DNA from: Camelus dromedarius
Lineage: Eukaryota
NCBI RefSeq assembly: GCF_036321535.1
Contig: NC_087436.1
Location: forward strand, 69,008,001-69,072,000
Reading direction: 5' to 3'
DNA: 64,000 nucleotides
Part shown: positions 1 to 63,564 of the stretch, piece after piece
Numbering within the stretch: position 1 is the first letter of the stretch
How the letters are laid out: each line of letters opens with the position of its first letter
Translations under genes and position numbers: made by a program
Notes under the pieces: generated by a model
The model's input: only the letters and a program-made list of their open reading frames with translations
Told to the model about the DNA's origin: nothing
Database searches by the model: none

Positions 1-943
1 AGATAGCTGGGCCCTTTAATTTTAGCCTCGTGTTTCTTTCCAGTACTAAAATCACCACCCTCCAGGTTAATTCTAGCTGAGATCTTAATCCATTCTGCAA
101 TTCCAGGAGTCCCTGTGAGTTCCAGGAGCAGGAGAAGGGCAGACATGGTTTGGTGGCATTGATGAAGGTAAAAGCAATAATTGCCTTCATTAGTAATGTG
201 TTTATTTGCAAATATTTGCACATACATTGTCCTCTTTGATCTTGAATACAGTTTTATGAGGGAGGTGGCGTAGGTGTTGTTATCACTATTTCACAGACAG
301 GAAAGCAGACTCAAAACGTTATGCTGATTCACCCAAAAGTCTAGGACTACTAAGTGGCAAAGACTGGGCTTGGGTTGTCTAACTGCTATTCTAGGTCTCC
401 CTCAGCAAGTCCGTGCTGCTGCAAACACACGTGCAAAGACCACAGCATAGCTATTTCAGTTCTTGTTATGGTCACTAGAATGATTTCCCTGATGTCAAAG
501 CCTCATGTAGATATGCTCTTTTCTACCCTAAAAGAACTCTAGGGCAGTTTGCCAAGGTGTTTAGCTGACTTGAAGTAAAAGGACGTGAAAAAACAGGATA
601 TATGCTTATGCTACAGTTAAATAAAAATGTTAGGCCATTAAACATTGGTCTAAGGGACTACCTAGTATTTGCTGGACATGAAAACTTTAAAAACTATAGA
701 GATGAGTCATCTGTAATTTAAGGAATAATCCATTCTCAATAGAGCTAATGAATTCAACAAAATAGCTCAAACTTTGCTTCAATTTTTTACTGAATAATTA
801 TCCTGACATTTAGCTTAGGATAATGTTTATTATTAACTTACTGACTAATGACTATAACATACCAATAGACGCTTTTTACAGTGGCACTTGAAATACAATA
901 TTATGTTTGATAGGTTGATCTCTTTTCTGTTATTGTTACTTAC

Positions 944-1011
944 ACTAGTGTGATGACTTGAGAATTGATGTATTGTCTGTAAATGCTAGAACTTTGAAAT
1001 GCATCAACCAT
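944..1011 (-). CDS. TMPRSS11BNL: TMPRSS11BNL-type exon 4 (SEA domain)
   Basis: tttaacag|ATGGTTGAT...CTAGT|gtaagt; 68 nt; MVDAFQSSSIYRQYINSQVITLV. Confidence 0.9.
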
Positions 1012-1109
1012 CTGTTAAAGAGAACACAAAGTCAAACATCAAATTCCAATAATACATTTTTGTTTCTGAGAATTAACAATGAGATAAATATAAGAAAATT
1101 CTAATTTAC

Positions 1110-1228
1110 CTTAGTCTCGAGAATTTTGCTAAGATAGTTATTTTCTGGTGATGTCTCCCTTTCATAATTGCTATTATATGGGATATCCAGCACTGTGAAG
1201 CTGCCTTTGTAATAGTAGGTCGTGTTTT
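1110..1228 (-). CDS. TMPRSS11BNL: TMPRSS11BNL-type exon 3 (SEA domain start)
   Basis: ctcacag|AAAACACG...ACTAAG|gtaaat; 119 nt; ENTTYYYKGSFTVLDIPYNSNYERETSPENNYLSKILETK. Confidence 0.9.
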
Positions 1229-3499
1229 CTGTGAGATAAAGAAGTGATCCAATAATTATTTAAATGAAGTTGATTTCAAATCCAGACATAGATTACATAG
1301 TAATACCAGCTAGTAAATATTGTGCTCATATTAGATATTGCTAAACTCTGTGAATTTTTCTGGCACAGTTGATTAGATAAACCGAGCATTGTGGAAAGCA
1401 TAAGACCAATAATGGAGCAAATATGTATCAGACAAAGGTCAAAAAGAAGAGTAACATCTTGATTGAGACAGATAGAATAGACTATAAATGATATTTTTGT
1501 CTACAATAACCAAATGTCAAACTATAAGTAAAAAATAGTTACCATTTATTACATATCCTATATGAAGTTACTTTGTAAAAACCATGTAAAGTATACCCAT
1601 TTTTCAGGAGAAATGTGGTCTCAAAGATATTCAGTAATTCACCTAGTACCATTCAGCTACTAAAAAGAGCCAAGGCTAAAAACTTGCTCTGACTGACTCT
1701 GAAGCCCAATTCTAATTCATTACATTTTATTCCTAAATTTTCATAGATACTAAGCTGTTTGACATATGATACATCTTACTCCTAATTTGTGGTAGATATT
1801 AAGCATCTAGGAATATGCTAGAAACACTGTATAATAGCACCTAGCATGTAGTAAGCAGTAAATAAATGTTAACATTATTTTGTAATATGAGCATTGCCTT
1901 TGAAGACCATCTTGTGGAAGAGATGGGCTCCATATGGATAAAATCATTATGTGAGATACTAATAAGGATATAATTAAATGACAAAGTTAATTGTTCAACT
2001 AGAAGTTCTATATGAGTGCAGAGAAGGGAGGCACCATAATTAAAATAAAATATGATTTATCATTATAAATGTGGTGAAATATTCTACAGAAAGGTGATGG
2101 AAAAAGAAGTCAGAAACTTTTAAACAAAATGCTGAAAATGTGTTGTTTATAAATAATAATTTGGAATGAACATTGTTAATTGTAGTTAGCTTGTCTGTGG
2201 TTCATGGATCACTACCATAGAGATGAGGCTTTGCAATGGTGGTATATAAGGGTTTACCATAAATAGCAAAAATAGACTTTAAAACTGTTCAACTCTATTT
2301 TTCATAATTTAGTATTCACAATGCATACTTCAGTTTTTATTTAGATTTCTAAATATTTCTACCTATTAAAGTAATTAAGCAGCCATCAATATTCCTCAGT
2401 ATAAATTAATAAATTGGCAAGATACAGAGTTTTTATTACAACTGCATTAAGAACTTCCGCTGAGCTAGTGGATAAACTGAACATTTAATGTCTAAGACAT
2501 TTAAGACTAAGAAACCATACCCTAGAATAAGGAAATGCATTCTTGAGTATCCTATTCTCAATTTAATTCTATGCAACAAGCCTAATAACACCTCTGAGGT
2601 TGCTCACCATGCTGAGGTCACTGTGAATACATCTATGATACTCTGTTGGTACCTGATGAGATGAAAGTAACCCCTTATGGATGAAAACTCTATAAGGCAT
2701 TCTTACACCTTATGATGAACATTCCCATCTCCATAAGTAGTCTAAATGCAAATATGAATTGAGAAAGATAATAAAGGGGCAGAAAGAATTGTTTTGCATC
2801 TTTTTCATCATTTGATTACTTACAACTTATTCCCGTAAAGAAAACCTACAATTTACACACATACATTTTTCATAGTTTTGAGTTTGGGGATTTTTTTTTA
2901 TACTAGGTATCTGGGTGCAAAAACAGGATTTAAGCATGATTTATGGGAGCACTTATATTTAAAACCAGTAGAGCAAAAGCACTTCTAAATTCTCCTTCTC
3001 TATGCCCAGAAAAAGGTAAAAAAAACAAGTGTGAAAGGCTTAATTAAAAGAATCCTAAAAGGCACTGACACTTTTGGACATAGGAGTGGAAATGTGATTA
3101 AAACCAAGAAGATTGGTTGAAACATCTAGATCCCAATGTTTTTTTCCCCAACTTCTAAAGTTTTTAGATTAGGGAAGTTGAGACACAGTTGAAAACAGGT
3201 GCACCATACTAAAAATCAATGTGCTGAATTTTTCCCTCAACTTGACTACAGAAAGCTAGTAGTCCAGAATATACTCATGCATTCCATCTAGGAATTCTGA
3301 CCAATTCAACAGAAAATACCCAAGTATATTGGTAAATTGGCTTCTCTTAACAAAACAACCTAGATAGAACAGCCTATGGTTAAAGCCATTTGTTAACATG
3401 CATTTCTTTTATAGACTTCCAGGCAGCTCTTTAATCCTCATTCTTAAACATTAGCAGACACTAAGCTAAAAGATCAACATATGTTTGAGAAAAGTATCT

Positions 3500-4630
3500 A
3501 ATATGAAATACTTCCAAAATACGCAGAGAAAATCTTGGAAAAAAAGAGACTAAAAATTAAAATAAATTACTATATTCAGAGAAGATTTTGTAAGAAATAA
3601 TATTAACATGTTATATAAAGGAATATCTAGATAATAAAAAGAATATCTTAGCTATTGAATATATCACTGCAGAAATGAAGAATTCAGTAGAAAGATTGGA
3701 AAATAAACTTCAGAAAATGACCAAGAAAGTGATTTTTAAAAATAATAAGGGATGGAAAATACAGAGAAAAAGATAAGAAAATTAAAGACTACATTTAGGA
3801 GGCCTAATGCCCATATTACAGGAGCTCCAGAAAGAGAGTGAAGAGGGTAGAAAATTATCAAAGAAATAATCTAAGAAAATTTTCAGGCACTAAAGTACAT
3901 GAATTTCTAGATTAAAAGGACCCACTAAATGCTAGCACAATGATTAAAAATAATATCTACATTATAGCACCTTATCTATAAAATTGCAAAATACTGGGAC
4001 AAAGAAAAAAATTCAATAAGGTTTCAGAAGGTGGGGGAGTAGGAGAAGAGATTTCATTCAAAAGCTCTAGAATCAAAATGTCATCAGACTTCTTGACAGA
4101 CATTATGAAAGCAAGACAAGTAGAGCTTTAGTTTCAAAATTCAGAGGGAAAAGTTTTTTCAGCCCAGAATTCTGTGCCATTAGTTGAGGTTAAGAGTAGC
4201 TGAGACATTTTCAGACATGTGAATTGTTGAAAGTGTAAACTTCCCTGAAAGCTTCTGGAGCATACAGTCCACCACAACTGAGCGAATAAAATAATTAAAA
4301 ACGAAATATGGAATCTAGGCATTAGGAGACCAAACCCAACAGACAGTTGAAAGTAATACCCAGGATGTTGCTAAAGGGAAATCCCAAATCAACAGCTATG
4401 TGGTCAGGGTGAGAATGAGTACGAGATCCATAGCAGAAAGTGAATACATAATACCAATAACTGAAAATTTAAGGTCTGGCAATGTTAAGAATCAACTTAC
4501 AGAGTGAAAGTGGTTGCCTCTGAGAAATGGGAAATAAAGGTAGTGGAGGAGAAGCTGCATTTCTCATACAAAGCTTTGATAATCTGACTGTTTAAATTAT
4601 GAGTACATGTAGCTTTGGAGGAAAAAAAAG
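3500..4630 (+). mobile_element. Old L1M ORF1/3' fragments in BNL intron 2
   Basis: Degenerate ORF1 motifs (ggagctccagaaagag; aagaaaattttcagg; cccagaattctgtgcc). Confidence 0.6.
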
Positions 4631-5352
4631 TCCAAGCATGACAAAGTGATTAATGGTGAGCATACTCCCCATTTGAATATATGTGTACATATATTTTCAT
4701 TGAAAACTAAACAACTAGTAGTTATGATTATGATTACAAATCAAAATGGAATGTTATAACTGTTGACAATGTAAAAATAATACTGGTAACAAACTACTGG
4801 GAATTGTGGGAGAAAAATGAGAAGTATAAGTGTGCCTATTTTCTTACCTTTCATAGCAGGCTACAAATAAGATAATGTTTAAAGTTAAAACACATGATTT
4901 TCTAAAAATGATTGCAGCTTTCCTCATGTTTTTCAAAGTCTTTTTTAAAAATCTATGTTGAGAAGACTTTAATATTAATGTCTGTTATGAAGAAACAAAT
5001 AGTTAAAATTCCATATTCTTTGGTTTCTCTTCATCACATACAATGAGTGTGGTATTTTAATTATAAAATAACACATATATTCCATCTCAGTAGATTACTT
5101 TTTCTCCCTGTCTATCTGTGCATTCACATCTCTATATGACATACATTCTTTTTTTACCTGTGTATATTAAAAAACATGTCTGTAATATAATGTTTGGCAC
5201 ATGTTAACAATGCTAATTTCTGGGATCTTGGGTCATTAGTGGACATTCCAAAAGGAGATTATTCATTGTTTGCAGTCGTTTCTTTGTCTTGTAGAAATAG
5301 AAATGAAGATTACAACAAACTGTATTTTTTTAAAAATGTATTCTTTACCAAC

Positions 5353-5468
5353 CTACTGCCAGAAAATGAACCAGGAGACCTATGGTAGTTCCCAGGATTG
5401 CCAACACTCCAAACACAATGAGGGCAATCATCCATAGCGGCAAAGATGTACGCGAAGCTGTGACTGGT
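5353..5468 (-). CDS. TMPRSS11BNL: TMPRSS11BNL-type exon 2 (signal-anchor TM helix)
   Basis: ttgcag|ACCAGTC...GCAGTAG|gttggt; 116 nt; PVTASRTSLPLWMIALIVFGVLAILGTTIGLLVHFLAV. Confidence 0.9.
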
Positions 5469-5605
5469 CTGCAAGTAAAGGATGTGAGTAAGAAAGATAT
5501 GTTAGAAAAATCACAGTCATTCCAAATCTTTCTTTCTTTCCTCTTACTCACCCCTAGAGGCTTCACAATTTAGGCACAGTAGTAGCAATAGACATTTGAA
5601 GACAG

Positions 5606-17293: not shown

Positions 17294-17455
17294 TCAGAGT
17301 CCAGTCTTGGAGGTAATCCAGTCACGATAAGCAGTCACCCGAGTGTAGACACCTGGTTTATTCTTTTTACCACATCCTTCACCCCAGCTTACTATTCCAA
17401 CAAGGTGCCATATATTCCTAGAGTTGGGGTAAGCTAGTGGTCCACCAGAATCATT
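17294..17455 (-). CDS. TMPRSS11B: TMPRSS11B exon 10 (catalytic Ser, stop)
   Basis: cttctag|AATGATTCTGGT...; [53 protein letters not shown]. Confidence 0.95.
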
Positions 17456-18092
17456 CTAGAAGAAAAGAGGGAAAAATGTTTCGTGTCTTGTCCAAGAATT
17501 TCCTTTTACCTCTCCTCTGGAGTTGCAATGCCCTGGGCATTGCAAACATCCACCCTCTGGGCTTAGAACTGTGGAACTCTTGGGTTTCTTCAAAACCCAG
17601 GGCAACTACCAACCAGAATACATTGCCTACAGCAGCTAAATATTGGATTGGAAAGACTAGGATTTGATTTTGTTAATGAGTCCAGCCTTAACTATGGAGA
17701 AAGTGCCTCAGCTGCTCCATGAGGAAGCCTCTGAAGAACAGATGTCACGTGCACGTGCTAAACGTCCTGCTGCATCTCTCCATAAGGAAGAGACAGCATT
17801 CTTGTCGGCAGGGTGCCCATAAAATAGAGCCAAACTTATTTTATCACCTTGTAAGTATGGATTCCTAGACTGAAAACTTCATGAGGGCAGGCATGGTGTT
17901 CACCACTGCATCCTCAGCATCTACGCTGGTATCTGGTACATTAATGAGAGTAATAAATATTTGCTTTCTGGATTGAAATAAGAAGTTACTCTGTGAAAAT
18001 CATTAAGACAAAAATTTTTTTGTGTGGTGATAAAAACTACCACTGAATTAGTACTTTGGGAAAAAATGATTTGATAATATTTCTTGAGGTAC

Positions 18093-18235
18093 CTGACAGG
18101 CATCAGCTTCTCCTGACATAAATCCAGCACACAGCATTGTATCAGTCACCAAGCCAGATAACGCATGTGGAGCATTGCAAACTTTGTTATCAATAATCTT
18201 CAGAAAGGCCTGCCGAAGTATTACTGGAAGAGGAC
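18093..18235 (-). CDS. TMPRSS11B: TMPRSS11B exon 9
   Basis: 143 nt, tttag|...CAG|gtacct; PLPVILRQAFLKIIDNKVCNAPHALSGLVTDTMLCAGFMSGEADACQ. Confidence 0.95.
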
Positions 18236-18584
18236 CTAAAGGCAATAAATTCTGCAAATTATAGAGATCTTAACCTTGTTTGTTGATACAAAGAGCTTCT
18301 GTGGAATAAAGCCGATTCTTTGGTCACCAAGAGCCAGCCAGTCCCTGACTAGACTGGTTTCTTTCTGATGTTTATTATCTGGCTGCTGCATACATTATTC
18401 CAATTTTTCCAATTCTCATTCTCAGAGGTATTTCAGAAACTGAAAACAATACCATGCTTTTGGTCCCATCACTTTGTTTTCTTTTCAGTATATTTACTGA
18501 TTGGTTAATTGTGTGAGAAAGTGATTGACTGATTGATTAAATATTATTCCTGTGAAGATATTACATATTTACAGAAAAACTCAC

Positions 18585-18844
18585 CATTCATATAAAGTGT
18601 TCCCCATCCTGTAACTACAACGCTGTCATTTTCTGAGAGCTTCATTTTGGCTTCAGGAAGACAAATCGTACGAACGTATTTCGTAAAAGAGACTTCTTCA
18701 GCAAGCTGCACAAGGGCAATATCATCGTGAACCCCAGCCTTGCTATAATTTTCATGAAAAATAATATTTTGGACTTTCCTTGTCATATATGGTTTATTTA
18801 CTACAGTTCCAAAGTTGACAGTCCAGTCTTCTGAATTATTTTTC
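18585..18844 (-). CDS. TMPRSS11B: TMPRSS11B exon 8 (catalytic Asp)
   Basis: 260 nt, ctccag|...G|gtgagt; KNNSEDWTVNFG...HDDIALVQLAEEV...VVVTGWGTLYMN. Confidence 0.95.
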
Positions 18845-20367
18845 CTGGAGGACACAATTCAATTAAAATTCACTCAGTTTGGGGTGTTCACAGAGGTTAT
18901 TATCTTATAATTTTAAGGTATGAGTTTCCCAAACAATACTTATAAAGCACTTAAATTCTTATTTTTAAAAATTGTCTTTGACGTGGGGATGTTATAAATG
19001 CTGCAGTCACATAAAAATAGTGCTAAGGACTATTAGAGCTGTTAGCTTTCTACAAATCCTCCTGACCAGAGTCACTGATGTTTCCTGCTGCTTCAGCCCC
19101 GTCCAGTTTCTGAGCATTTGAGTTGGGTAGGGCTCACATGAGCAGCCCCAATGGAAGGGGTCCAGAATCACTGTTCTTTCCTACCATACACCCTGCACTC
19201 CTAGAACCTGTGGCAGTCTCCAGGCACTTCCATAAATTTTAAAATTGCAAATTATTTTAACACAGTCACATTACATTTACGAAGTCAATGCCTCTTGGCT
19301 TCTAATTTAGATTTTCTGACCAGTTTCTCCAGTTCCCCTGAGATTCTTTCTCAGTTAGGACCTAACATCCTATCTAACCATTTTTACCTTCCTCAAAATG
19401 TCAGGTATTGGCGGTTTTTTTGGTGGTTTTTTTTTTAAGGGTTTCAAGACCTTCCTATAACTGTGACACTGTTCAGTCTTTCTCCCATTTTAAAATCTTC
19501 AGTGACTCCACATACTCAATAGCTGTGTTTTTCCAGTAAGTTAGCATCTTGTCATTTAGAAGTATTCCCGATCCCAGATATAACTACATTTTCTAAGCAT
19601 ATTTTCTAATGTTTCCTTTTACAAATCCTCTAAGATTCAAATTATTCTCTTTGCTTGCTGTCCACAGAATACAACTTGTGTTGTTTCATGTCAACACATT
19701 TGAAGAAGGCTATTTTCCCAACTCGAAATGCTTATTATCCTTTCTCATCTACTCACCCTATCAATCAAGTCTTTCATCTTTAGAGTCTGGATCAAATCTT
19801 ACAACTGCATACCTCAGCTAGATATGTTCTCTCTTGTCATCAGGTTTCCATCAAACTTAGTACCTGTGTTGTACATACACCATGCCACCTTCTACTTTTA
19901 ATACATCACATTTAAATTTCTTCAAATAGATTGTAACCCCCCAGAGGACAAGACAAATAAGCACCTTGTAACTGGAGTCAGACATACCTGTATTCACATT
20001 CAATTTCTGTTATTTAAGAGCTGTATGATCTTGGTCAAGTTACATCACCATTTCTGAACCCTAGATTTCCTCATCTTTAAATAGGTTAAATTATACCTTC
20101 CATATGGAATTACTATTATGATTAAATAAAATGATGTAAGTAAAGCACTTAACATTGGGCTAAAGCAGCTTTTTAGAAAATGTTAATTTGCTTCCATTCA
20201 CTTTTCCCCCCTTCCAAATTTAAATTTCTTTGCTGCCCTTCAATTATACAAGTATTTGTAAATTTCATATGGCTTGGCAAACTTCACACATTCAAGTTAA
20301 CCCCCACAGACTATCCGAAATAGGCCTGCACCTAGACTCCTACATTTAGTGAAACTTTCAAACTTAC

Positions 20368-20545
20368 TTAGCAAAGCAGTGAGCTGCAGATAGGAGCCAC
20401 CTGCTGCTGATCAGAGAGGCACCACAGTAGTGCTGGCCCTTCCATTGCATGCTTGCCTGCCACGGCCAGGCCCCACCCACGGCTTTTTTCCCATTCACAA
20501 TTCGATTGCCAGATGTAATACTGTTGGCCAGTTGTCTCCCACAAC
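20368..20545 (-). CDS. TMPRSS11B: TMPRSS11B exon 7 (activation site, catalytic His)
   Basis: 178 nt; [58 protein letters not shown]; donor gtaagt. Confidence 0.95.
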
Positions 20546-21353
20546 CTAAAGAAAAGATTTATTTATACAAGAGCAGGTATCTGTGATTATGCTTTATAAG
20601 AAGTATTTTTAAAACATTACTTGAAACCCTTCAGTGATTGTTCAGCACCTCCTAACAATGCTGTCTCTTTCCTGTAATGTATTCATATCATGGTAGTCCA
20701 CTCCATCTTCGTTTGGGTTATGTTTACTTTTCCTCTTTTTCAGTCTTAAACGTCTTTCACTTACTGACTTACATTGTATCTGTCTTATAATTTTACTCTC
20801 CCCAAATAGATTGCAAAGTTCTTGAAGGTAGAAACTTTGCTTCATTAATGTCTGTATGTTGCATAGCATGTACAGTGCTGTCTGTAAAGCCCCATGTGGA
20901 TAATAGATATTCCAGAAATATCCACTGATTGAATGAATGCATGGATGTACCATGTTGTGGGCCCCATGATACTTTAAAGAGAATTTGTTTAAAAGGTACA
21001 GAACTGTTTTTTACCTTATAATAGACGTACTTTTCTATAGCCTAGTTTTGCATTTTCTTATTATCCTAAGTTGTCCTTTTTCCTTCCCTTTTTTTTATAT
21101 ATTAACTAATTCAAACAAGATATTTTTCATGATTCCATTCTTTGCAAACAGTTGTCATTTCACCCTTTTGGACAACCACTTACAAATGGTCAGTGTTTTT
21201 TAAAAAGGAATTCCCAATAAATATCTAGTATATCCAATAATTTTGAAAAACTACTATAGATTTCCACCTGAGGTGCTTCTAGATACTTTCTAGAAAAATG
21301 ATAGAAAACTGTTTGTGAGTGTATTAAATTTATAATAAAGTTTCTAAACTTAC

Positions 21354-21392
21354 AGTTGTTTGTAAGCATTTCAGCATGAGCCTTGCTGATTT
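21354..21392 (-). CDS. TMPRSS11B: TMPRSS11B exon 6
   Basis: 39 nt, tttcag|AAATCAGC...AACT|gtaagt; EISKAHAEMLTNNC. Confidence 0.92.
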
Positions 21393-22793
21393 CTGAAATT
21401 AAAAAAAAATAAAGTTGATAAAATATCATCATGCAATTCTCTTCAACCCAAGGACTAGATTTCCTAACCTAATTACAGCCAACATTTAACTATTCAGGCT
21501 AGTTCGTGTATTGCTTATCAACCCCTCTCACTCTTACTTGTTATATTCTGGCCATCTCTCCACATCTTTACCAGGTAGTACAGGAAAAGGAAATAAAAAA
21601 GCAAAGCTCTCAGTTTTATGATAGTTGAAGTAAAATATTTAGTGAAGTAAGAAGCTTATACTCTTACTAAAAGAGGCACTGGGCATAATCTTTGGATTTC
21701 TTTCCCTTAGATAATTCTCATTACTCTGAAATACTCAGAGTTATCTATATTTTAAAGGAAAAAAATCCAACTAAAATTACATTGGGCCTATCCTACTCTT
21801 TGCAAGTCATCTCATTACTAAGACTGAATTATGAAATTTTGAGAATTTAACTTAAATTCAAGTCTCTTTTCCACTGGGAAGAGACTTTAGAGAGAAAGAG
21901 AAGAGAGAACTAAAAAAGGACACATCAGAAAGTGCTAACTCTTAAATCCCGGGGATACAGAGGGGCAGTAACTGGTACAGTCTTCTTTCCCAACAACTAC
22001 TCACGAAGGAATTGTATTGCTTCTTTCAGAAGCTCTGCCTCAGACTCACTTGTCATGAGTGGCCCATTGGTGACAGGGTCTGTGTTCTGAGGCAAAGGAC
22101 CTGTGACTGGCAGCTGGCAGCCATTATAGCTTTCAAGGACACTAGGATCAATTGTCAGTCTGGAAGAACCACAAAACTGGGCTATGGAACCACAAGCTTA
22201 GACCACCTAAATAGACCTTTTAACAATCCAAGTTAGAGTTTCAGGACAAATGCAGGACCTTCAAGATGCTTACAAATGTTACTTTCTGCACTGAGACAAA
22301 ATTCTGTCATTTTCTTCTCTTGTTTTCTGGGGAATTATTTCAGACAAGTTTTTCTTTAGTAGGATTACTTCCATTCTTCTACAAGAATCAATAAGAGCTC
22401 TCTGTCCTCAATTTCACACTTACTCCTACAATCTTCAGCTCAATGATCAAGAAAACACTTAAGTCTGTTTCCTATAATGAGATCCTGACAAAAGTAGAAG
22501 GTAGGGAGAATAATGCTTCAATTACTACCTTTCACCCCCTTTTCCATCCATAATACCCAACCCTCCCAAACTCACAAGCATATCTGTGGTTCAACACTCC
22601 TTCCTATCACTGTTCAGACAAAGATTCCATAGCACTACCCTTTCCACTATCAACTCAATGGTAGGAGTGCCAGAGTTTGGAAAGACTATTTTTTCCTAAG
22701 TAAATTTTTTCCTAAGTACATTTTTTCTGGTACTTTTTTTTTTAATAGTCTAGATACTTAAGTAGTAGAAAATAATTAAAATAGTTGAAATAC

Positions 22794-22954
22794 CTATAAA
22801 TTTAAGGGAGGTGGGAACTGCATTCCAGGATGCCATGTTGTCTTTCAATATCTGATGTAAGATAGCTTCTATTTCAGGCTTCATGCTATTCTTCTTTGCT
22901 GGAGGAAACTTGAATGTCAGCTGTAACTGTACACTGGAACCACTGGGATTAGGA
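22794..22954 (-). CDS. TMPRSS11B: TMPRSS11B exon 5 (SEA domain)
   Basis: 161 nt; PNPSGSSVQLQLTFKFPPAKKNSMKPEIEAILHQILKDNMASWNAVPTSLKFI. Confidence 0.92.
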
Positions 22955-24185
22955 CTGGACAAAACAGAAATGTTCTCATGTGCTACTTCCTGATTTTTTA
23001 GATGTCTTATGAACATACTGAATTTCCCACATTGTAATTATTATATTGCCTTTACATATATTAAAAAACAATACACAGATATTGTCCCAGTATATATAAA
23101 GTTCAAGGATCCTTAAAAATCTTCTAATTGGTTTAGAGGTATTGTTTGTGAAAGAGGATGTGAACGTTAGAAATCAGAATATTTCAAACATGTATGAGAA
23201 ACTGAGTACTGGCCAACAAATAATTGGCTTGAAATTTCATTATAATACAGTAAAAAAAAATAGTGTTTTGTACAGATGTTTTCTTAATTTTAGAGGAAGA
23301 GATAAATAAGAACTTAAATGCAGGGCTGGGAAGCATTCAAAAGATAAATTCTAGCATATATTCAAGAGCCAGAACTAAGCTTCTTCCCGTAGTTTCTTAT
23401 GAGTGTCCACCCCAATGGATCTATACAATGAGAAGGCTCAGAAAGATAATTCTAAGCATAAGAATATCTCCGTTATCTGTATATTCAGTACATTATTTTT
23501 ATTGATCAGGAGAGACAATTAATTCATTTTGGAAGACTGTCAATGCAAAAGCTATATTAATCACAATTTTTAAGAAACCACAGCTCTATTTTCAAATAAT
23601 TAGGATCAATTGAAGGGCCTTCAGACGTTTTTGTCTGTCTGGGGGTAAGTAGGTTGGTTGGTTGTCTAGCTGGATTTTTTTTTTAGTTTTAAGGAATTCA
23701 GACTTCTCCAGAATAGATACTGACAGTTGCTAAATTACAAATGCTCTCTCCCTTAATCACTTATCCCCTATGCTCCGTGATACCTGCCTCCCCGCATCTC
23801 TCACCACCACCATTACCACTGTCAGGCACACTTACAATACATATTTAGACAAATGTTATCGTAAAGATTCACTTTTCTCCACAGTCATTACAGTGATGGT
23901 GATTATTAAAGAGACCGAAGGAGGATTATTTTAAGAAAGATACGGCCAGACGAGTATGAATGGGAAAAGAGGTGGCTAGTAGATGGATAGCAAGACAATC
24001 TTTATTTTCCGTAGAGTTACAATTGTCTTTTAAATTATCTTTTATCATAGAAGTCAGTTAGAACTGACTGCCACCAACAACCTTACAATTCCGCTTCAAG
24101 TACCGAGATTACAGATTTGTACAGAACACTTCCTACCCTGAACAGAAATTTGTTAGATACAGTGATATTTTAATTTATGGGGAGT

Positions 24186-24297
24186 CCTTCCTTCCTTCCT
24201 TCCTTTTTTCCCTTCCCTTCCCTTCCTTCCTTCTTCCTTCCCTCCCTCCCTCTCTTCCTTCTCTCCTTCTCTCTTCCTCTCTCTCCCTCTCTCTTTC
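24186..24297 (+). repeat. (CCTT)n/(CT)n pyrimidine tract in TMPRSS11B intron 4
   Basis: About 110 bp of essentially pure C/T. Confidence 0.9.
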
Positions 24298-24390
24298 TGT
24301 TTTTCATCACTGTTGTTACTTAAAACCAGGACTAATGTGACATATTACCTACATCTTCTTCCATATAATCTTGAATGAATTTATACTTAC

Positions 24391-24458
24391 AGAAGTTTCA
24401 TGACCTGAGAGTTGATATATTCTTTGTATACCCTAGAATTCTGAAATGTGGTAGATAT
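24391..24458 (-). CDS. TMPRSS11B: TMPRSS11B exon 4 (SEA domain)
   Basis: 68 nt, ttgacag|...|gtaagt; ISTTFQNSRVYKEYINSQVMKLL. Confidence 0.92.
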
Positions 24459-24543
24459 CTGTCAAGAGAAAAAACCAAAAAAGCCATGATGTATGTTTCA
24501 ATCAAATTTATAATAAAGTTAATAAAAAAGATCTCTTACTTAC

Positions 24544-24659
24544 TTTAGTCTCAATATCTTTGCTCAGATTTGTGCTGGCTTCTGAAACTGCTTTTTCACA
24601 ACTGTCATTATATGTGACTCCAGAAATATGAAAATTACCTTGGTAATAGTAAATCTTTC
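24544..24659 (-). CDS. TMPRSS11B: TMPRSS11B exon 3 (SEA domain)
   Basis: 116 nt; GKIYYYQGNFHISGVTYNDSCEKAVSEASTNLSKDIETK; donor gtaagt. Confidence 0.92.
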
Positions 24660-26349
24660 CTGTGAAATAAAGAAATATTCAGAAAATTTTAAAACAGGAA
24701 ACGGCTTCAAGCCCCTCTGTATCTTTATCTCAAAATTAAATTTCAATAGATGTACTCAGTTAGGGCAATTAGTTTACTACCACTGAATGAGATATTCCCC
24801 TAGCTGTCATCCAACTCAAGTTACTCTATTAACAAAGATTGTATTAGCTCCTAAGCCAAAATCCTAGAGCAAAAGGGTTCATCTTTCAAAATGATTTCAA
24901 ACAACCTTTGCAAGTTTGAATGTCCATTTTTACTTCACAAGAAGTCTGGTTCAACTAATTTAACTTTAGGTAATACAAGCTTGTCTAGTCTTATATCTGA
25001 AATGATAGATGGTTGAACATGTAGAGAAATTCAGGGGTGACTTATCATTCCACACACTTCCTACTCAAGCCAGGATGCCTGTAGTTCTCTCTTTTGCATT
25101 ACTCCTTTCCACTAAGTCATTGTTTCTCCAGAAGAAGGGATCTATTAAAATGCAAACTATATTTTGGAAGGTTAACTAATTAGGCTACTGGTCCCCACTA
25201 ACATATTGACAGAACTTCTTCACGGGGGCTTGATATGGAAAACTCAGTACTATCCTTAAGGAAATGATGTGAAGAATGTTATTTTTTAATGAGCAGAGAC
25301 AAAAAGAGGCTAGAAGGATTCAGACTATGGAGAGTTCATGGATAAACATGCCAAGCAAGAGTCTGAGTGTCTACTACACTCATGAAGGACAAGTTTTGAA
25401 ATTTGAAATTAAGATGATTATGGAGAAACAAAGGAGAAGCTAGGTTGAAAGAAAACTTGAATTGTCACTGAATCAAGCAAAATGTGTCCATATGACATTA
25501 TTGTATAGGGTGATATATTTCAGAGGAATAAAACAAAAATCATGATAAAGTAGAATAATACACTTGAAGTATTAAAATGTGGGTTTGTGTTCAGCTATGT
25601 GACTTAAATCCTGTGATATCAAGCAAATCACTTGAGTTGCCTGAACCTCAGTTTCCTGCGTGTGAGACTAGGGATAGTAGTAAAACCTGCTCTCTCAAGT
25701 TCAAAGGATTATTGTGAGGATCAAGTGGAAGAGTAGGTAACAAATTTGTTTAAAAACCTTAAACAGTTACACAAATTTTAGAATTAATTTTTCTGAAAAG
25801 TAAAAATAAACTGGAAAACCAAACTTTCTGAATGTAGGTTTAATAAAAGATACTAAAAATAAGATCAAGTTAGTATGAACATTCAGCCATTTAACCATTC
25901 TTGACTGTCCACTATTAGAAGAACCATTAGTGGATTATCCATTCTTACTTATCAATTATATCTTTAATAATCAATATTAGAAATGAGCCAAGAAGAGTAG
26001 GGATCTCCAAAGCTTGAGGTATATTTACTAAAAATGTACAGCTTAACTGCAAACCTACTATATAAGCTCCTTTATTGACAACAAATATTGGCACCAAAGT
26101 ATTGAATTTTTCAGTCTTGCCCATACTCCCATAGTTGGTGATACAACTTACAGAGAGGATCAAGGAAATACAGAATTCAGAAAAATTTATAAACTTTGGT
26201 GTCAAATTATATAAAATTATTATGTTGAAATAAAATAGTAGTGACAAAGTTTCCATAAGGAAATTTAATATTCATGTTGTTTCTTACCAATTTCTAAGAG
26301 TTAAAAGAGATTTAGTGGTAAGGGTGAAAATTGAGTAGTCAATACTGAC

Positions 26350-26468
26350 CAACTGCCAGAAAATGAACAATGAGACCAATAGTTATTCCCAAGATTGCCA
26401 TCGTTCCAAGGAAGATAAGGATTGTCATCCAAAGTGGCCAAGATCTTCTCTGGGAAAATACGTTGTAC
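26350..26468 (-). CDS. TMPRSS11B: TMPRSS11B exon 2 (TM helix)
   Basis: 119 nt; YNVFSQRRSWPLWMTILIFLGTMAILGITIGLIVHFLAV; donor gtcagt. Confidence 0.92.
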
Positions 26469-55720: not shown

Positions 55721-56408
55721 AATATTGATATTCTTAGTAGTGCAATGTTACATAATTATTATTTGCTAGAACTTAGAATAAGCCCATTATATAGAGTTTG
55801 TATACTTAGCGTTGGCCACAAGAAAGCAGAATCTTCCCCACATTTATCTCTGTAGTTGTTTGCTGGAAATAAAAATAAAGCTGTATCTTGGTTTCTCTTT
55901 AGTTCCTTAACTTAGTTCCCATTCTTTTTCCATCATGAAGTATTTGGTATTCTGTTGTCTGTTTGCTTGACCTTTCGTAATGATTATGATCATTTTCCTC
56001 ATTCCATAAAGAAAAAAATACTAATGCTTTTCTACACATGAAAAATGTAGTTCTTTCCTTTTCATATTTCCTTTCAGTCTCTGTCCTACACCTTGAAAGT
56101 GGAAATTTACTGATATGAGAGAAGCTGAGGAAATGAAGGAAGGGATCACTTCAAATTGTGTACGTGCATGAGAAATTGATGTTAACAAGCTAAAATCTGA
56201 TGACAGTAAACTTCTAGAGAACAAGTGAATGCAAGTTGGGACGGAATCCATCTGGCAGAAGTTAGGAAGGACATATATGCACATACAAGCAGACAGTTTA
56301 GTTCGATCAGACAAATCTAGGTGATCTGCAAGGCTTCTTCTGCAATTCTGTATCTTTAAGAATGGCCTGTATATAAAAATGTGTTCTACTCTACTGGGTT
56401 TTTCTCTC

Positions 56409-56570
56409 CTAGACACCGGTTTTGGAAGCGATCCAGCCCCGGAAAGCAGTCACTCTAGTATAAACGCTGGGCTTATTGGGTGCCCCGCAACCATCGCCCC
56501 AGCTCACTATTCCAGCAAGGTACCAGGTATCTCTAGCATCTGGAGTAACCAGTGGTCCTCCGGAATCACC
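56409..56570 (-). CDS. TMPRSS11E: TMPRSS11E exon 10 (catalytic Ser, stop)
   Basis: cctttag|GGTGATTCC...; [53 protein letters not shown]. Confidence 0.93.
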
Positions 56571-58599
56571 CTAAAGGAAAAGGGAGAAAGTAGTCATTAA
56601 TAATTTAGTTCGTTACAGAGAAATCTACTACTTTTCTAATTTGAGTTTAATGAAAAGGGCGATTTTCAAAAGTCTTCTATGTGCTCCCCTCTACCTATGC
56701 CAGTGACTCACGGTAAGGAGGAACTCCCCTACCTGGAGAACTGGCTTAGACTCAGGGTTCAGAAAACTGAGATTAAAGGCGCCATCTCTTTGCAGAATGG
56801 TACTTATCTGATACATCCGTCAAAGCAACTGTCCGTTTTCTTTATGAGTGTGACACAGTTCCCAAAAGAAAGGTGAAGGGTTTATTACCGATGAAAAGCA
56901 TGGACATTAAAGTCAGACACCTGGGTTTAAATCTCAAGTCTGGCCCTTCCAAGCTAAGACCTTTAATTTACTTCTTTGTAATGCTTCTAATAATACCTAC
57001 CTCCAAGGATAATTTTGAAGATTACGGAAGACAGTGTATGTAATGTGCTTACCATGGAGCCTGGCACAAAACAGAACTTAGTAAATATGTATATAAAATC
57101 ACAAATTCCACACAATTGTTTATGTCTTGCAAACTCCAAAGGGCTGTTTCTTTATACAAGTCATAAAAACAAGGTACTGGATGATCTTTCTGAAAAATCC
57201 TGGGGTCTCTATTCACTGACCACCCGTCAACACTGGAACAACAAGCTGGAAAATAAGGTGACATCCAGCAAGTATCAAATAGAGAAAGATGTAATCTGCT
57301 CTGCTAACACTAGTTAGCTCACACTCGAGGAAAAAGGAAAAGGGGAGTATGGACGTTGCGATGACTTATACGTGTTTTGTTTTAGTAAAGGACAGAATAA
57401 TGGGAGTAGAAGTACAATCTTCAGGAAAAAAAGGAAAAGGTCTCAGCTCCACTACTGCACAGGCAGAAGCCTTTGAGGCTTTATTTTAAGAAAATGTTAA
57501 AAGAATCCCTGTGCCTGGGAACCTTCTCCCTGCCCAGAGAGACACACCCCAGACTTGCTTAATTCTTGGGTCCTGGCAGGTTACACTTCCTCCTCTACTG
57601 AAGCTACATTCCCATGGGCATTGTCTAAGCCTCTGCAAGCTGGTATTTCTACTCTGTTGTTTCTGTGCATTTTTAACTTCCTCTAAGTCAGCCACCAGCC
57701 ACTCCGGGCATTCTGCCTACCTACACTGTCCACGTTGTTTTTCAAGGTCCAGTTAATTGTTGTTAATTCTCTGCTTACAAAATTGCACAGCCTTTGAGGG
57801 GGGCTTTTGGTCTGTATCTAACCCTATTTTTCTCATAAATCCAGTTATTTTTAGCGAGTGGTTTAGTGAGAAACAGAACAAGAAGCTTATTCAAGAATAT
57901 ATATATACCACAACAGAAACTTTTAAAACGAGAAAAAGAAAGTCAAACCAGGAAGCAATTAAGGTGATCAAAATATGAAGTAAGGTGATGGACTAGATGA
58001 GGATGTTAACAGAAAGAATGGAGACAAAGAGATAAATTTGGAAGAAATGGTAAAGGGGAAAAATATTCTATAACTTACTTGATTACACGTGAAGGAGATT
58101 TAAGAGTAAAAGAAGATTCCAAGCATAATAAGATCCAACAACACAAATGAGAAAGTTGAAAATGAAAAAACAGGTAACATTTCATGATGCCTGTTGAGTT
58201 TAAGATGGCACATACACACATTTTAGTCTTATACTAACAATTTAAAATATATAAATGGAAATGGTTTTGAAGTGGGTGGAAACGTGAGACTGAATTTGGG
58301 CAAGAGGTTGATTTTGGAGATATAGGTTTGGAAGTCACTAAAGTGACAGCTGATTTAAAGAAAAGAAAAGATAATTTCTTTGAGTGAGTATATAGAGAGC
58401 AGAAAAAAAAAATGAAAAGATTCTTTAGGAATAGCCAAACTTAGAGAGAGGGAGAGAAAGAGAAACCATAATAAGTAACCAGAAAAGAGTGATTGAAGAA
58501 AGAGGGAGATTAGGAAGTCAGCATATTTCAGGATCATAGAACCCAAAGAAAGATCATATTTTAGGAGGAGGTAGCCACATGTACCATCATGTTTGAAAA

Positions 58600-60100
58600 A
58601 AATGAAAAAATAAGAAGTTTCAGCAAAGAAATGCCATATATAAAGGATCAAATGGAAGTCTCAGAACTGAAAGATATAATAATCAAAAGAAAACTTCCCT
58701 ATATGTGCTTAGAGAAGAATGAAGATGACAGAAGGAAAAAAAATCAGTAAACTTAAAGATAGAACGATAGAAATTTCTCAGTTTGAACAACAAAGAAAAG
58801 GCAGAACAGAAAAAAAAAAATGAACAAGAACTCAGGGACCTCTGAGAGTATAACAAAAGAGGTAACATTCCTATCATTAGAGTCCCAGAAAGAGACAAAA
58901 ACGTATAGGGCTGAAAAAGTATTCAAAGGAAAAAAATGGCTGAAAATCTCCCAAATTTATCAAAGGACGTAAACCTGCAGATTGAAAAGCTAAGCAAACT
59001 CTAAACAGGATAGCCCAGAGAAAGCCATGCTAAGATACATAATCAAACTTCTGAAAACTAAAGACAGAGAAAAATTCTTGAACACAGGGAGAAATGACAC
59101 CTCACCTATAAAGGGAAAACAATTCTAACAGGGGAATCCTCATCAGAAATCCCAGAGGGCATGATTTAAGTGCTGAAAAAAAAAGAACTGTCAATCTTAA
59201 ATTCTATATCTGGCAAAATCACACTTTAGAAATGCATAGGAAATAAAGAATTTTGAAAATGAAAAAAAAAAAAGATCTAAGGAAATTTTTCACCAGCAGA
59301 TCTACATCAAGAGAATGGCTAAAGGAAGTTTCTGAAACAGAAAAGAAATGATAAAGGAAGAACCTTAGAAAACTAGAAGGAAAGAAAGAACAGACTTCCC
59401 TTCTCCTCTTGAGTTTTCTAAGTTATGTTTGGCACTTGAATCAAAAACATTGTCTGCTGTGGCTCTCAATATATAAAGGAGAACTATTTAGTATTTGTAT
59501 TTATTAATATTCAATATTATAAATGAGAAAGGGTAAAGAGCCTTAAGGGGAGGTAAGTTTTCTATTCTAAACTCCACTCAAACTAGTAAAATTCCAATAC
59601 CAGTAGACTGTTGATAAGTTATGTGTATTTAGCTAAGAGGAACCACACAATTTTTCTACAGAGAGAATCTTTTGTAGGTCAAAAACACAAATAGCTAAAT
59701 CAAAATGGAATTCTTGAAAAAAAAAAGTTACTGTATGGTTCTGTTTACATGACACTCTCAAAATTACAAAAGTATAGAGATGGAGAACATATTAGTGATT
59801 CTCAGGTGTTAGTGATGGTGAAGTGGTGGGTGAGGAGAGTGAATGTTATTATAAAGGGAAACCTCTATGCTGATAGAAGAGTTCTCAACTGCAGTGATGA
59901 TTACACAAATCTGCACATGTGTTAAAAAAAAAAAAAAACCCAAAACCTAGAAGCACACATTGTACCAAGGTTCATTTCCTAGCTTTTACATTGTGCTATA
60001 GTTATGTGAGATATAACCATTGGGAAAAACTGATTGAAGGGCCTCTCTATACTATCTTTGCAACTTCTGTAAAGCTATAATTATTTTAAAGTAAAAGGTG
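58600..60100 (+). mobile_element. Old L1M (ORF1 plus 3' end) in TMPRSS11E intron 9
   Basis: Degenerate ORF1 (agtcccagaaagag; atggctgaaaatctcccaaattt) and an L1MC-type 3' end. Confidence 0.7.
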
Positions 60101-60129
60101 AACAAAAAGTTATGCAGCAAACCACTTAC

Positions 60130-60272
60130 GAGGCATGCATCTCTATTTCCCTTCAAGGAGCCAGCACATAACATTCTAGGAGTTATGGTATTATTGTAAA
60201 TTTGTGGTTGGTTACAGGTTTCAGTGTCGATGAAATCCACTTGTACTTGCTGAAGACAATTTTGACTGATAT
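60130..60272 (-). CDS. TMPRSS11E: TMPRSS11E exon 9
   Basis: 143 nt; [48 protein letters not shown]; donor gtaagt. Confidence 0.93.
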
Positions 60273-60868
60273 CTAAAGGGAAGAAAATAGACTTTATATT
60301 AATAGATATACATATATTCTGTAAACCTGTAGAAAATCTTTTATAACTATTGGATAAGATGGTGGCACAGAATCTTAGGATATGTATTTTGTCAGATACA
60401 GTAATATTTGTGAAAATTTTTTTCTATTTTAAATGAAAAGTTAGGTGCCTAGGAAAGGACCTCAAGTTGTTTAAGTAATTTTTATTCCATTGTTGGGCTT
60501 AGAAGGTAATTTCAGTAGGTAAGAATGGTGGCTTTATGAGTCTCTGATCCTCACAGTTGGGTATGTGTGTTAATGATCCCTAATCTCTGATGTAGTTAAT
60601 TCCCTAATACAAATTTCAGACATAGTCACTCTTTCAAACACCTTACCAAGCACCATGACTAAAGTAGTAGTGATGAACTTGATAGTAACCTAAGGCATGA
60701 AGGAATTTACGTGTCTTCTAAATGACTTGGTTCACAAGTAGAGCCTGGCTTGGCCCACGTCCACATGACCAACCATCAACATATTTCGGCATAATGACAT
60801 TCCATTCTTTAAATGCATTAGAATACTGAATTAGATTACTATGACTTGACTTTCTCCCAGATGCTCAC

Positions 60869-61128
60869 TTTCATTTCGCAGTGCTCCAAATCCTGTCACG
60901 AACATCACATTATCGGGGTGGAATTCATAGGATGCATCAGGGAGACAAATTCTGTGTACTGCATTTGTGTAAGGAACGGGGCTAGAAAGCTCTGCAACCG
61001 AAATATCATAGTCGTGCGACGGGTATTTGTAATTTTCATGGACAATTATCCTCCGGAGGCCCCGTTCTATTTTCGGAGGCATTAATGTTACTCCAAAGGA
61101 AGCAGTCCATCTGGCTGGGTCCTTATAC
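60869..61128 (-). CDS. TMPRSS11E: TMPRSS11E exon 8 (catalytic Asp)
   Basis: 260 nt; [47 protein letters not shown]...[11 protein letters not shown]; donor gtgagc. Confidence 0.93.
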
Positions 61129-61516
61129 CTGAGGAGAAAGTATGAGGAACAAATTTCACTTTGTACATGTTATCAATATAACCATTTATATTAAATAATT
61201 CAGTGGACAGGTGTCAATATAAGTTTTATTTGTTAAATTATAGTTTCTGTATATAGAAACAAATTCCAAGCTAATGTTCGGAGGACAGATCTTGTGGAAA
61301 TACCATGGTGGCATGTTTCTCAGGCTATGCATGCCTCTCTGCATGCTGAGTCACCCCCTCTAGACCCTAGGATTGTTTGACATTGCTGGGCATCAGTGTC
61401 TCCAAGGGGCATTTGGAGAGCAAATCCTGGACAGAATGAGAGAACAGAATGTCTTATTTTATGTGCACCATGTTGCCTATCTATGAACATACACAATTCT
61501 CTAAAAATCAAAAATG

Positions 61517-61603
61517 CTGGAGGCAAGGGTATAGCTCAGTGTCAGGGGACATGCTTAGCATGCACAAGGTCCTGGGTTCAATCCCTAGTACCTTCATTTA
61601 AAA
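61517..61603 (+). mobile_element. tRNA-derived SINE (Vic-1-like) in TMPRSS11E intron 7
   Basis: A box (tagctcagtg) and B box (gggttcaatccc); TSD aaaaatcaaaaatg at 61503-61516 and 61604-61617. Confidence 0.8.
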
Positions 61604-62135
61604 AAAAATCAAAAATGGTACACAATAATTTAACAAGGCATTACTTATCCTGTATACTGTAGACATTTTGCACTGGATTGGAAGATTGAATTGAAATTCC
61701 TTGAAATATAACTAGTCAGCCTATTCAGTTGTATAATTTTTTTCATATTTAAGTTTTCTCTTACCATGTGGAATTTCCCCATTGGTGTCAAACCTATAAT
61801 CTACCTGGCCTCCATCGCTGATAGATATGCAGTAGAGATATACAGCTCTTCTCTTTAACACCAAGCTCCAAATCCAAAGATGACTTTAAAATTCCTGCTT
61901 CCTTTGACCAACTGTTGTGTAGTTGTCAATGGATAATTTATCTACATGTACTTTGATGTCACTTCCATTGCCAGACTCTAAAACCTCTTACTAAGGTTTA
62001 TGAGTTCCCCGCTCTCTTTGTGATGTATGTATTATCTTTAATTTATATTGAACTCGTCTCTCATGAGGTATTTCCTTCCTGCCAAGCCCACAATCCTTTG
62101 CTGACCCTCAGTCATTCTCATGGATCAGGATTTAC

Positions 62136-62313
62136 CTTCTAAAGCAGTGGGCAGCACTCACAAGCCATGTGCCATTAATTAAAGTCGCTCCACAGCGATG
62201 TCTCCCATCCCATCGCAGGCTAGCCTGCCACGGCCATTCATCCTCTTGTGCCTCTGTCCCACCAACAACCATGACCCTATATTTTGCAGTTTTGTTCCTT
62301 CGTGTCCCACAGC
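62136..62313 (-). CDS. TMPRSS11E: TMPRSS11E exon 7 (activation segment, catalytic His)
   Basis: 178 nt; [58 protein letters not shown]; donor gtaaat. Confidence 0.93.
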
Positions 62314-63525
62314 CTGCCAAAGAGAGATGTTGCATTAGTTAGCAGTCGCTTTTAAGTATCAAATTGTGTCATTATGTCTCAAATTTCTTATACTTTGTAT
62401 TCCAGTAGTATCAAACATTTTTTCCTACTCTTACCTTTCCTTAAATTGTAGTGTTTCATATTTAACTCCTATTCATTTTGTAAGAGTTAAATCAGTCATT
62501 ACTTCCTCTAGAATGCCTTCTCTAATAATTCCCCTGCCTCCAAACTGGATTAGTTACAACTTTCTTGATTCTTACAGAATAATAATAAAAACAGTAAACT
62601 CTTTCTTTCTATGTGTGTGTATATACATATGTACATATATCTCCGTTTATATATTTCTACTAATATATATTAGTAATATATTATATATATGCTTATGATA
62701 CTAACATATTAGTACTAGAATATATACACATATATATTATATCCTTGTTGCCTAACACAGCACTGGCACATAGCAGGTTTCCAATAAATAATGGTGGCAA
62801 AAATATATGCTGTTTAGGTAATGAGATCATCCTTTGGTTTTATGTTTAGTTAGGTTTGTGAACTAACCAACTTTCTGAGCTGGTGAGTAGCACATTTCCT
62901 TCCAACTTTCAAGATAAATGTATTGTGTGCTAATTCTGTTGACTATGAAATGCATTCTCTAAATCAGAGTAGGGTACTATGCTATAGGGGAAGGGAAACA
63001 CTAGGCCTAGAGTCAGCACTTTTAAAATATGGGTGAAGGTATTATCTGGACCTTCAACAATTTCATCAGTATATACCCCAATCTCATAATTGTCTGCAAT
63101 TTTTATAATATGGGATTAATATTATCAAGATTTTATTTAGTGTACAGTAACACTGCTTCTGTCTCTACCTGAAAAAATATCAACATACAGACCACTTTTA
63201 TATAATCTTTAGAAAACTTTCATGAGGGTATATTGTAGATATCTGCAATCAAAACAGTGAGAATTTTTTTGCCTTTTCTTGAAAAACTGCACAACTCACT
63301 TCCACTACACATCTGCCACTGGCTCCACACATCTGTTCCAAAGCCCTCCCAATTTTTATCCTTTTGCAATAAAATGTGCCTCAAATATAAGATAAAACAC
63401 CATAGATGTGTACAGATCAAACTTTATTCTGACCCTATAATACCAACAAAGTAAGCCTAAATAATCTAGAGTTAACTTTTTACATTCAGGTAATGCATCT
63501 TTAATAAATAATGTATTAAACTTAC

Positions 63526-63564
63526 AATTGCTCAGAAAGTCGTCTGTTTCTGTCTTGTTGATTT
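63526..63564 (-). CDS. TMPRSS11E: TMPRSS11E exon 6
   Basis: 39 nt, tttcag|AAATCAAC...AATT|gtaagt; INKTETDDFLSNC. Confidence 0.9.

Follow-up and report, generated by a model that had tools for sequence, protein, structure and literature searches.

Methionine at the activation site of camelid TMPRSS11E is accompanied by substitutions in the S1 pocket

The 64-kb window, meaning the whole stretch of dromedary DNA that was analysed, contains exons 6–10 of TMPRSS11E on the minus strand, with AG/GT ends and in-frame joins. Exon 6 (63526..63564, 39 bp) encodes stem linker, exon 7 (62136..62313, 178 bp) holds the catalytic His57 (62147–62149), and exon 8 (60869..61128, 260 bp) holds Asp102 (61005–61007) and contributes, as its last base, the opening of a codon (60869 and 60271–60272) in which Gly has become Asn322. 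Exon 9 (60130..60272, 143 bp) encodes the resulting N322-I-S sequon, an unpaired Cys327 (60256–60258), the retained Asp189 (60139–60141), and Leu192 (60130–60132). Exon 10 (56409..56570, 162 bp including the stop codon) encodes Asp194 and Ser195, both intact (56562–56567), the substitution E219G, and Ser226 (56466–56468). The activation motif, K-Y-R-V-M↓V-V-G-G (62258..62284, minus strand; the arrow marks the expected cleavage position), is encoded in exon 7 and is read in the assembled sequence from the codons AAA TAT AGG GTC ATG GTT GTT GGT GGG at 62284–62258. Met (ATG, 62270..62272) occupies P1, Arg occupies P3 (position −3; 62276..62278), and Val16, the predicted mature N terminus, is encoded at 62267..62269. 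The initial annotation of this DNA had described exactly this arrangement, with Met before the mature N terminus, Arg two residues upstream, and the exon length, reading frame, and catalytic triad intact, and each of these points is borne out.

The gene is, judging from its sequence, a true TMPRSS11E orthologue, a member of the HAT/DESC group of TTSPs and not a kallikrein. Its product is closest to TMPRSS11E, the gene is placed in the TMPRSS11 cluster, the source records name it 11E, and the triad, Asp194, and conserved cysteines expected of an orthologue are present. The closest PDB match of the camel protein is human TMPRSS11E (2OQ5), and the earlier assignment was sound in this respect. Camelid and human TMPRSS11E are 76–78% identical over the protease domain, with shared cysteines, triad, D189, and D194, and full-length records from other camelids have the same anchor–SEA–protease layout (Pfam PF01390 and PF00089); exons 1–4 are absent here, at a gap. 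The camelid protein differs from the human one in P1 Met, Arg(−3), Val16, Leu192, Gly219, Ser226, the N322 sequon, and Cys327. The codons for H57, D102, S195, D194, and D189 are all intact, and the loss of a catalytic residue that would define a pseudo-protease was not found. Chymotrypsin numbering was set from standard motifs (GDSGG, SWG, and KP-x-VY) rather than from a structural alignment, and residue 322 can be assigned to the autolysis loop only approximately. An AlphaFold2 prediction from the 47-row alignment described below (mean pLDDT 54, pTM 0.43) was too poor for use. In six RNA-labelled runs from two reproductive-system studies, 0.11–0.41 of the words of 56300–62400 were present; exons make up ~12% of this interval, so that most of these shares include intron, from pre-mRNA or DNA, and they constitute no evidence of expression.

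A DNA search of this dromedary assembly returned a single match for the TMPRSS11E exon, and a protein search with exon 7 returned 75 matches, the next best of which were 47–59% identical. Seven other cluster exons on the same contig encode paralogues of 47–61% identity, all with Arg or Lys before residue 16. No second, canonical copy of TMPRSS11E, for which the initial annotation had advised a search, was found in the assembly by either method, and a canonical camelid TMPRSS11E was absent among the best 120 matches of each of two protein searches. The description of the gene as a “TMPRSS11E copy” was thus correct as to identity, but “copy” was misleading, this being the only TMPRSS11E found in the assembly.

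Exon 5 lies ~3.3–3.4 kb past the right end of the window and is interrupted by a 200-N gap. Exons 1–4 were not found in 120 kb of adjoining DNA, nor genome-wide in this assembly. TMPRSS11E models from other camelids are 420–422 aa long in both tribes, and one dromedary model, of 316 aa, lacks the same part. A true deletion of exons 1–4 was rejected in view of the 200-N gap in exon 5 and the full-length records, and the missing exons are read as an assembly gap. The gap would cut any gene model from this assembly to the protease half. Exon 5 here carries the Camelus-type Arg139, not the His of alpaca.

The activation site was compared across 237 proteins, of which 174 match the TMPRSS11E motif: six from camelids and 168 from other species, the latter including isoforms and close kin, so that they are not independent events. 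The six camelid records, members of a 90% cluster, come from C. ferus/bactrianus, dromedary (two), alpaca (two), and one more. All six, which are the camelid records with this exon, combine M↓VVGG with Leu192 and Ser226; a seventh camel model skips exon 7 yet has Leu192 and Ser226. In the non-camelid records, P1 is Arg, residue 16 is Ile, and P3 is Ser, Gly, or Thr without exception (168/168 each), residue 192 is Gln in all 164 that contain the segment, and residue 226 is Gly in 165/165. The usual mammalian motif, found in most of the others, is x-Q-S-L-R↓I-V-G-G. The comparison of exon 7 among camelids and cetartiodactyls that had been proposed earlier separates the camelids from every other record at P1, and the basic P1 residue of a canonical trypsin-activated TTSP is replaced by Met in all six. 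Arg(−3) is equally distinctive (6/6 camelid versus 0/168 other records), and the Tyr that precedes it is nearly unique, occurring in one of 44 other orthologues. The camelid arrangement R-V-M↓VVGG, in which a dipeptide separates a basic residue from the cleavage position, is that of tryptase/granzyme-type sites. Neither the newness of this Arg nor the S1 substitutions Q192L and G226S had been recognized in the initial annotation. Old and New World camelids are dated to a split ~16.3 My ago, and camelids to a departure from other artiodactyls 55–60 My ago (PMC12127551); because the changes are shared by camel and alpaca, they arose on the camelid stem. Either substitutions or the duplication of 6 nt combined with a deletion may have formed the motif. 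TMPRSS11E of hippopotamus has a separate change at the same site, a two-residue deletion giving Y-S-P-R↓IAGG, in which Arg is kept.

An alignment of 47 records chosen from 214 (three camelid and 44 others, approximately one per species) contains 104 columns in which the 44 non-camelid orthologues do not vary, and 88 of these columns fall in residues 176–422. Camelids have altered exactly five of the 104, R190M (P1), I191V (residue 16), G322N, Q369L (residue 192), and G404S (residue 226), all of which lie in the activation site, the autolysis loop, or S1. In a leave-one-out control, zero to three such changes were counted in 42 of the 44 others, the exceptions being platypus, with seven, and rhino, with 10 in a record that has an aberrant N terminus. 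Other camelid changes are E219G and the acquisition of the N322 sequon and of the extra Cys327, each of the latter two being found in 0/44 others. Gly is described as the usual residue 219 of TTSPs (PMC12065894), so that E219G is not unusual on its own. G18, G19, and D194 are retained together with the triad, as are G193, G216, D189, and Ala190. Measured against the canonical trypsin-like pocket of Asp189, Gly216, and Gly226, camelid TMPRSS11E keeps the first two and has Ser at the third. A sequon at N348 is common to camelids and four of the 44 others. In the membrane-anchor region (residues 18–42), 6–7 of 18 conserved columns are changed in camelids, and His40 of this region has become Asp in camels and Pro in alpaca.

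The best 150 distant representatives of the wider family yielded 357 domains, and in 239 of them the triad and Asp194 are both present. Asp189 is found in 190 of these 239, and within that group Gly226 occurs in 184 domains, Ser226 in one, and Leu192 in one. The 49 domains without Asp189 have Ser, Ala, or Thr at 226 in 26 cases and a large apolar residue at 192 in 17. By these frequencies, the camelid residues Leu192 and Ser226 are typical of non-tryptic pockets. The activation site is readable in 163 of the Asp189 domains, and P1 is non-basic in 18 of these, two of them with Met; a Met P1 is thus uncommon, though not unique, among unnamed S1A proteases, and unique among the TMPRSS11E records examined.

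Relative-rate tests over residues 176–422 assign 28–33 changes to camel versus 8–15 to pig, cow, or porpoise (p 0.0002–0.018 in nine of nine tests), and the N-terminal part, comprising the anchor and the SEA domain, has 23–28 changes in camel versus 6–12. TMPRSS11E has evolved ~3-fold faster on the camelid lineage in all domains. Neighbouring genes are not faster in camel (5–6 versus 10–14 changes for a TMPRSS11BNL-like gene and 5–8 versus 8–12 for a TMPRSS11B-like gene), and the rate rise looks specific to TMPRSS11E. When just two TMPRSS11E exons were tested, with horse and bat as the comparison, significance was not reached (p 0.20 and 0.06). Between camel and alpaca, 0/257 residues differ in 166–422 versus 5–6/152 in 14–165 (Fisher p = 0.0025 for six). 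Twelve canonical species pairs have 154 protease and 163 N-terminal differences, and against these pairs, which are not independent, zero versus 5–6 has a p of about 0.02–0.04; the freeze exceeds the canonical-pair ratio and hence normal constraint. For the six motif residues taken by themselves, the comparison has next to no power. The absence of differences in 257 residues over ~16 My argues against decay, and the stops, frameshifts, or neutral divergence of a pseudogene were not found in exons 6–10, which are open. A burst of change followed by a freeze suggests, at the level of sequence, a function that has been changed but maintained. In the camelid records examined, the pattern is a real, lineage-fixed, and conserved rewiring of the activation site and the S1 pocket.

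Three routes by which such a protein might act were put forward in the initial annotation, namely a zymogen-locked protein, cleavage after Met, and a two-step route, and all three are sound enough to be retained, each with its own weight. The reading that we prefer, tentatively and at somewhat less than an even chance, is that the protein becomes active when cleaved between Met and Val16, with the enzyme itself as the probable agent of the cut. The pocket is predicted to be kallikrein-like and would accept Met as well as Arg: Ser226 would partly shield Asp189, Leu192 would make the pocket entrance more apolar, and the Met side chain would fit. Residues 189, 216, and 226 are described as the main determinants of P1 preference (PMC8537139). 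The cut would free Val16 to pair with Asp194, as described for the freed residue 16 (PMC10707025). The cutter would be another molecule of the same enzyme, as in human TMPRSS11E, for which self-activation is indicated by the failure of S372A to yield a catalytic fragment (PMC12675585), and in TMPRSS11D, which is described as binding and cutting its own motif (PMC12065894); alternatively, a chymase-, elastase-, or KLK-type enzyme could make the cut. If an enzyme reads its own motif, changes in motif and pocket should go together, which matches the camelid pattern and provides one cause for both, and consideration of Leu192, Ser226, and the new Arg(−3) shifts the odds toward a cut after Met. The outcome would be a surface protease with altered substrates that is no longer directly switched on by other trypsin-like TTSPs.

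A partial parallel to the predicted pocket is found in tissue kallikrein KLK1 (PDB 1SPJ; pig 2PKA/1HIA), in which Asp189 is likewise combined with Ser226 in S1 and the NKPS motif is shared, human and pig KLK1 both having Ser at the same NKP-x position. KLK1 belongs to another subfamily, such that any likeness would be convergent, and is secreted. It has WG-x-x-P-C in place of the camelid WG-D-G-C, and this longer segment, with one more residue between Trp215 and Cys220, makes the analogy partial. KLK1 also has a long 99-loop and is itself activated after Arg. In pig KLK1, Ser226 is described as binding the P1 group and loosening its contact with Asp189, and the enzyme as being of mixed specificity (PMC3014083). 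A dual Arg/Tyr preference is given for KLK1 (PMC12786316), and tissue kallikreins are described as cutting kininogen after both Met and Arg (PMC10242079).

Several features count against a cut after Met. With Asp189 and Ala190 kept, Arg may still be what the pocket prefers. Trypsin becomes less active with a larger residue at position 226, and KLK2 has Ala226 yet is listed as tryptic. The speed-up spans the whole protein and includes the changes in the anchor, which also fits a period of relaxed constraint, and the N322 glycan site and the unpaired Cys close to the active site are just as compatible with a disabled enzyme. A more far-reaching version of the preferred reading is correspondingly more doubtful, although possible: that this camelid TTSP no longer belongs to the Arg-triggered cascade, and that co-evolution of its activation site with its S1 pocket has produced a private, Met-specific self-activation switch that converges on the tissue-kallikrein pocket and brings a new substrate range on epithelia.

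Next in weight, and on the whole unlikely, is the possibility that the activation site always goes uncleaved and that the protein acts either as a single-chain zymogen of low intrinsic activity or without catalysis, as a cofactor or as a partner that binds inhibitors. Loss of cleavage would then have left the motif and the activation loops free to drift. The five changed columns sit where constraint from activation and S1 would be lifted, and the new sequon and free Cys fit this view. A precedent is the zymogen-locked matriptase of engineered mice, a TTSP described as functional without activation cleavage; it differs in being engineered, S1 changes are not mentioned in the part of that report cited here, and the zymogen activity of matriptase is itself called unusual (PMC5452369). 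None of the essential residues H57, D102, S195, G193, D194, D189, and G216 has changed, however, and residue 16 has changed only to Val, which is still beta-branched. Leu192 and Ser226, moreover, occur in non-tryptic domains with an intact triad, and no report of single-chain activity of TMPRSS11E was met in the literature consulted here for other questions.

Somewhat less probable again is a two-step route, in which a tryptic cut after the new Arg(−3) (K-Y-R↓V-M), made by the enzyme itself or by another TTSP, would be followed by removal of the Val-Met dipeptide by cathepsin C or aminopeptidases, freeing Val16. The fixation of Arg(−3) in camelids and its absence from the 168 other records, the nearly unique Tyr before it, and the retention of D189 are all in keeping with such a route. 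The initial annotation had called it granzyme-like; the spacing is as it described, but β-tryptase provides a better precedent than the granzymes do. The tryptase pro-site has the spacing Arg-Val-x↓IVGG, like the camelid site. For β-tryptase, an autocatalytic cut followed by dipeptide removal by DPPI has been described, in a review that also states that the route has been strongly challenged (PMC7957558), and this granule enzyme differs from TMPRSS11E in that it needs heparin and acid pH. The S1 subsite of cathepsin C is described as favouring hydrophobic residues, but the enzyme is lysosomal with an acidic optimum (PMC11337848), whereas TMPRSS11E is a surface protein. The two-step route also leaves Q192L and G226S unexplained, and Arg at P3 could instead provide an S3 contact for the preferred cut after Met.

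Decay of a gene in which a stop or frameshift is yet to come is improbable. It would account for the ~3-fold faster evolution of all domains and for the change near the membrane anchor that went on after the camel–alpaca split, but the camel and alpaca protease regions are identical, zero versus six has a p of about 0.02 even when set against normal constraint (from pairs that are not independent), and models in both tribes are full length. On these sequence comparisons, decay is largely excluded, and the simple decay that the initial annotation had named as fatal to its claim was not seen. An assembly error, a private allele, or an extra duplicate that exists alongside a canonical gene, the first two of which the annotation had also named, is hardly credible and is largely refuted, since, although the codon is known from assembled records and this assembly has a gap inside the gene, the identical motif appears in 6/6 camelid records, one copy was found in the assembly, and no canonical camelid TMPRSS11E was among the matches listed.

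To our knowledge, the HAT/DESC proteases have been treated as uniformly trypsin-like and Arg-activated. No report of the camelid change was found in the literature on TMPRSS11E and camels, as covered by titles and the beginnings of abstracts and with few subscription papers included, and TMPRSS11 genes go unmentioned among the matches listed for camelid selection literature. Of the genes in this cluster, only TMPRSS11A and 11F appear in the six supplementary files of one camelid study (PMC12127551); the supplements to other papers on camelid genomes might list TMPRSS11E. With switch and pocket both changed and fixed in one lineage, the camelid enzyme serves as a natural experiment in the alteration of S1A specificity while Asp189 is kept. 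Any of the routes considered would be new for the subfamily, whether the enzyme activates itself after Met, is a surface protease trimmed by a dipeptide, or represents a naturally occurring zymogen-locked TTSP that purifying selection maintains, and data from human and mouse TMPRSS11E may not transfer to camelid epithelia. Human TMPRSS11E can process some viral entry proteins; any camelid link to viral entry is speculative, and the change is older than the camel/llama split of 16 My ago.

Other serine-protease genes provide several further observations. In the TMPRSS11BNL-like gene (window 17297–26461, minus strand), the protease exons are open and Gly193 is replaced by Asn (CQ-NDSGG), a residue that is also present in deer and bat records. 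TMPRSS11B-like exons at window 943–5470 (minus strand) and in another contig stretch (L017) encode the activation site R↓IKGG. A fused model from Sousa chinensis has, in its TMPRSS11F-like part, the motif S-T-E-S↓VVQG, without the P1 Arg that is kept in the camel paralogue; this motif possibly reflects decay or a model error. The last exon of a camel KLK1-like gene (L048:3999-4151, minus strand) encodes Ala at 226, a position occupied by Ser in human and pig KLK1. Dispersed, near-identical serine-protease exons of the K↓VYG or K↓IYG type were observed on several contigs, at least two of them with stops.
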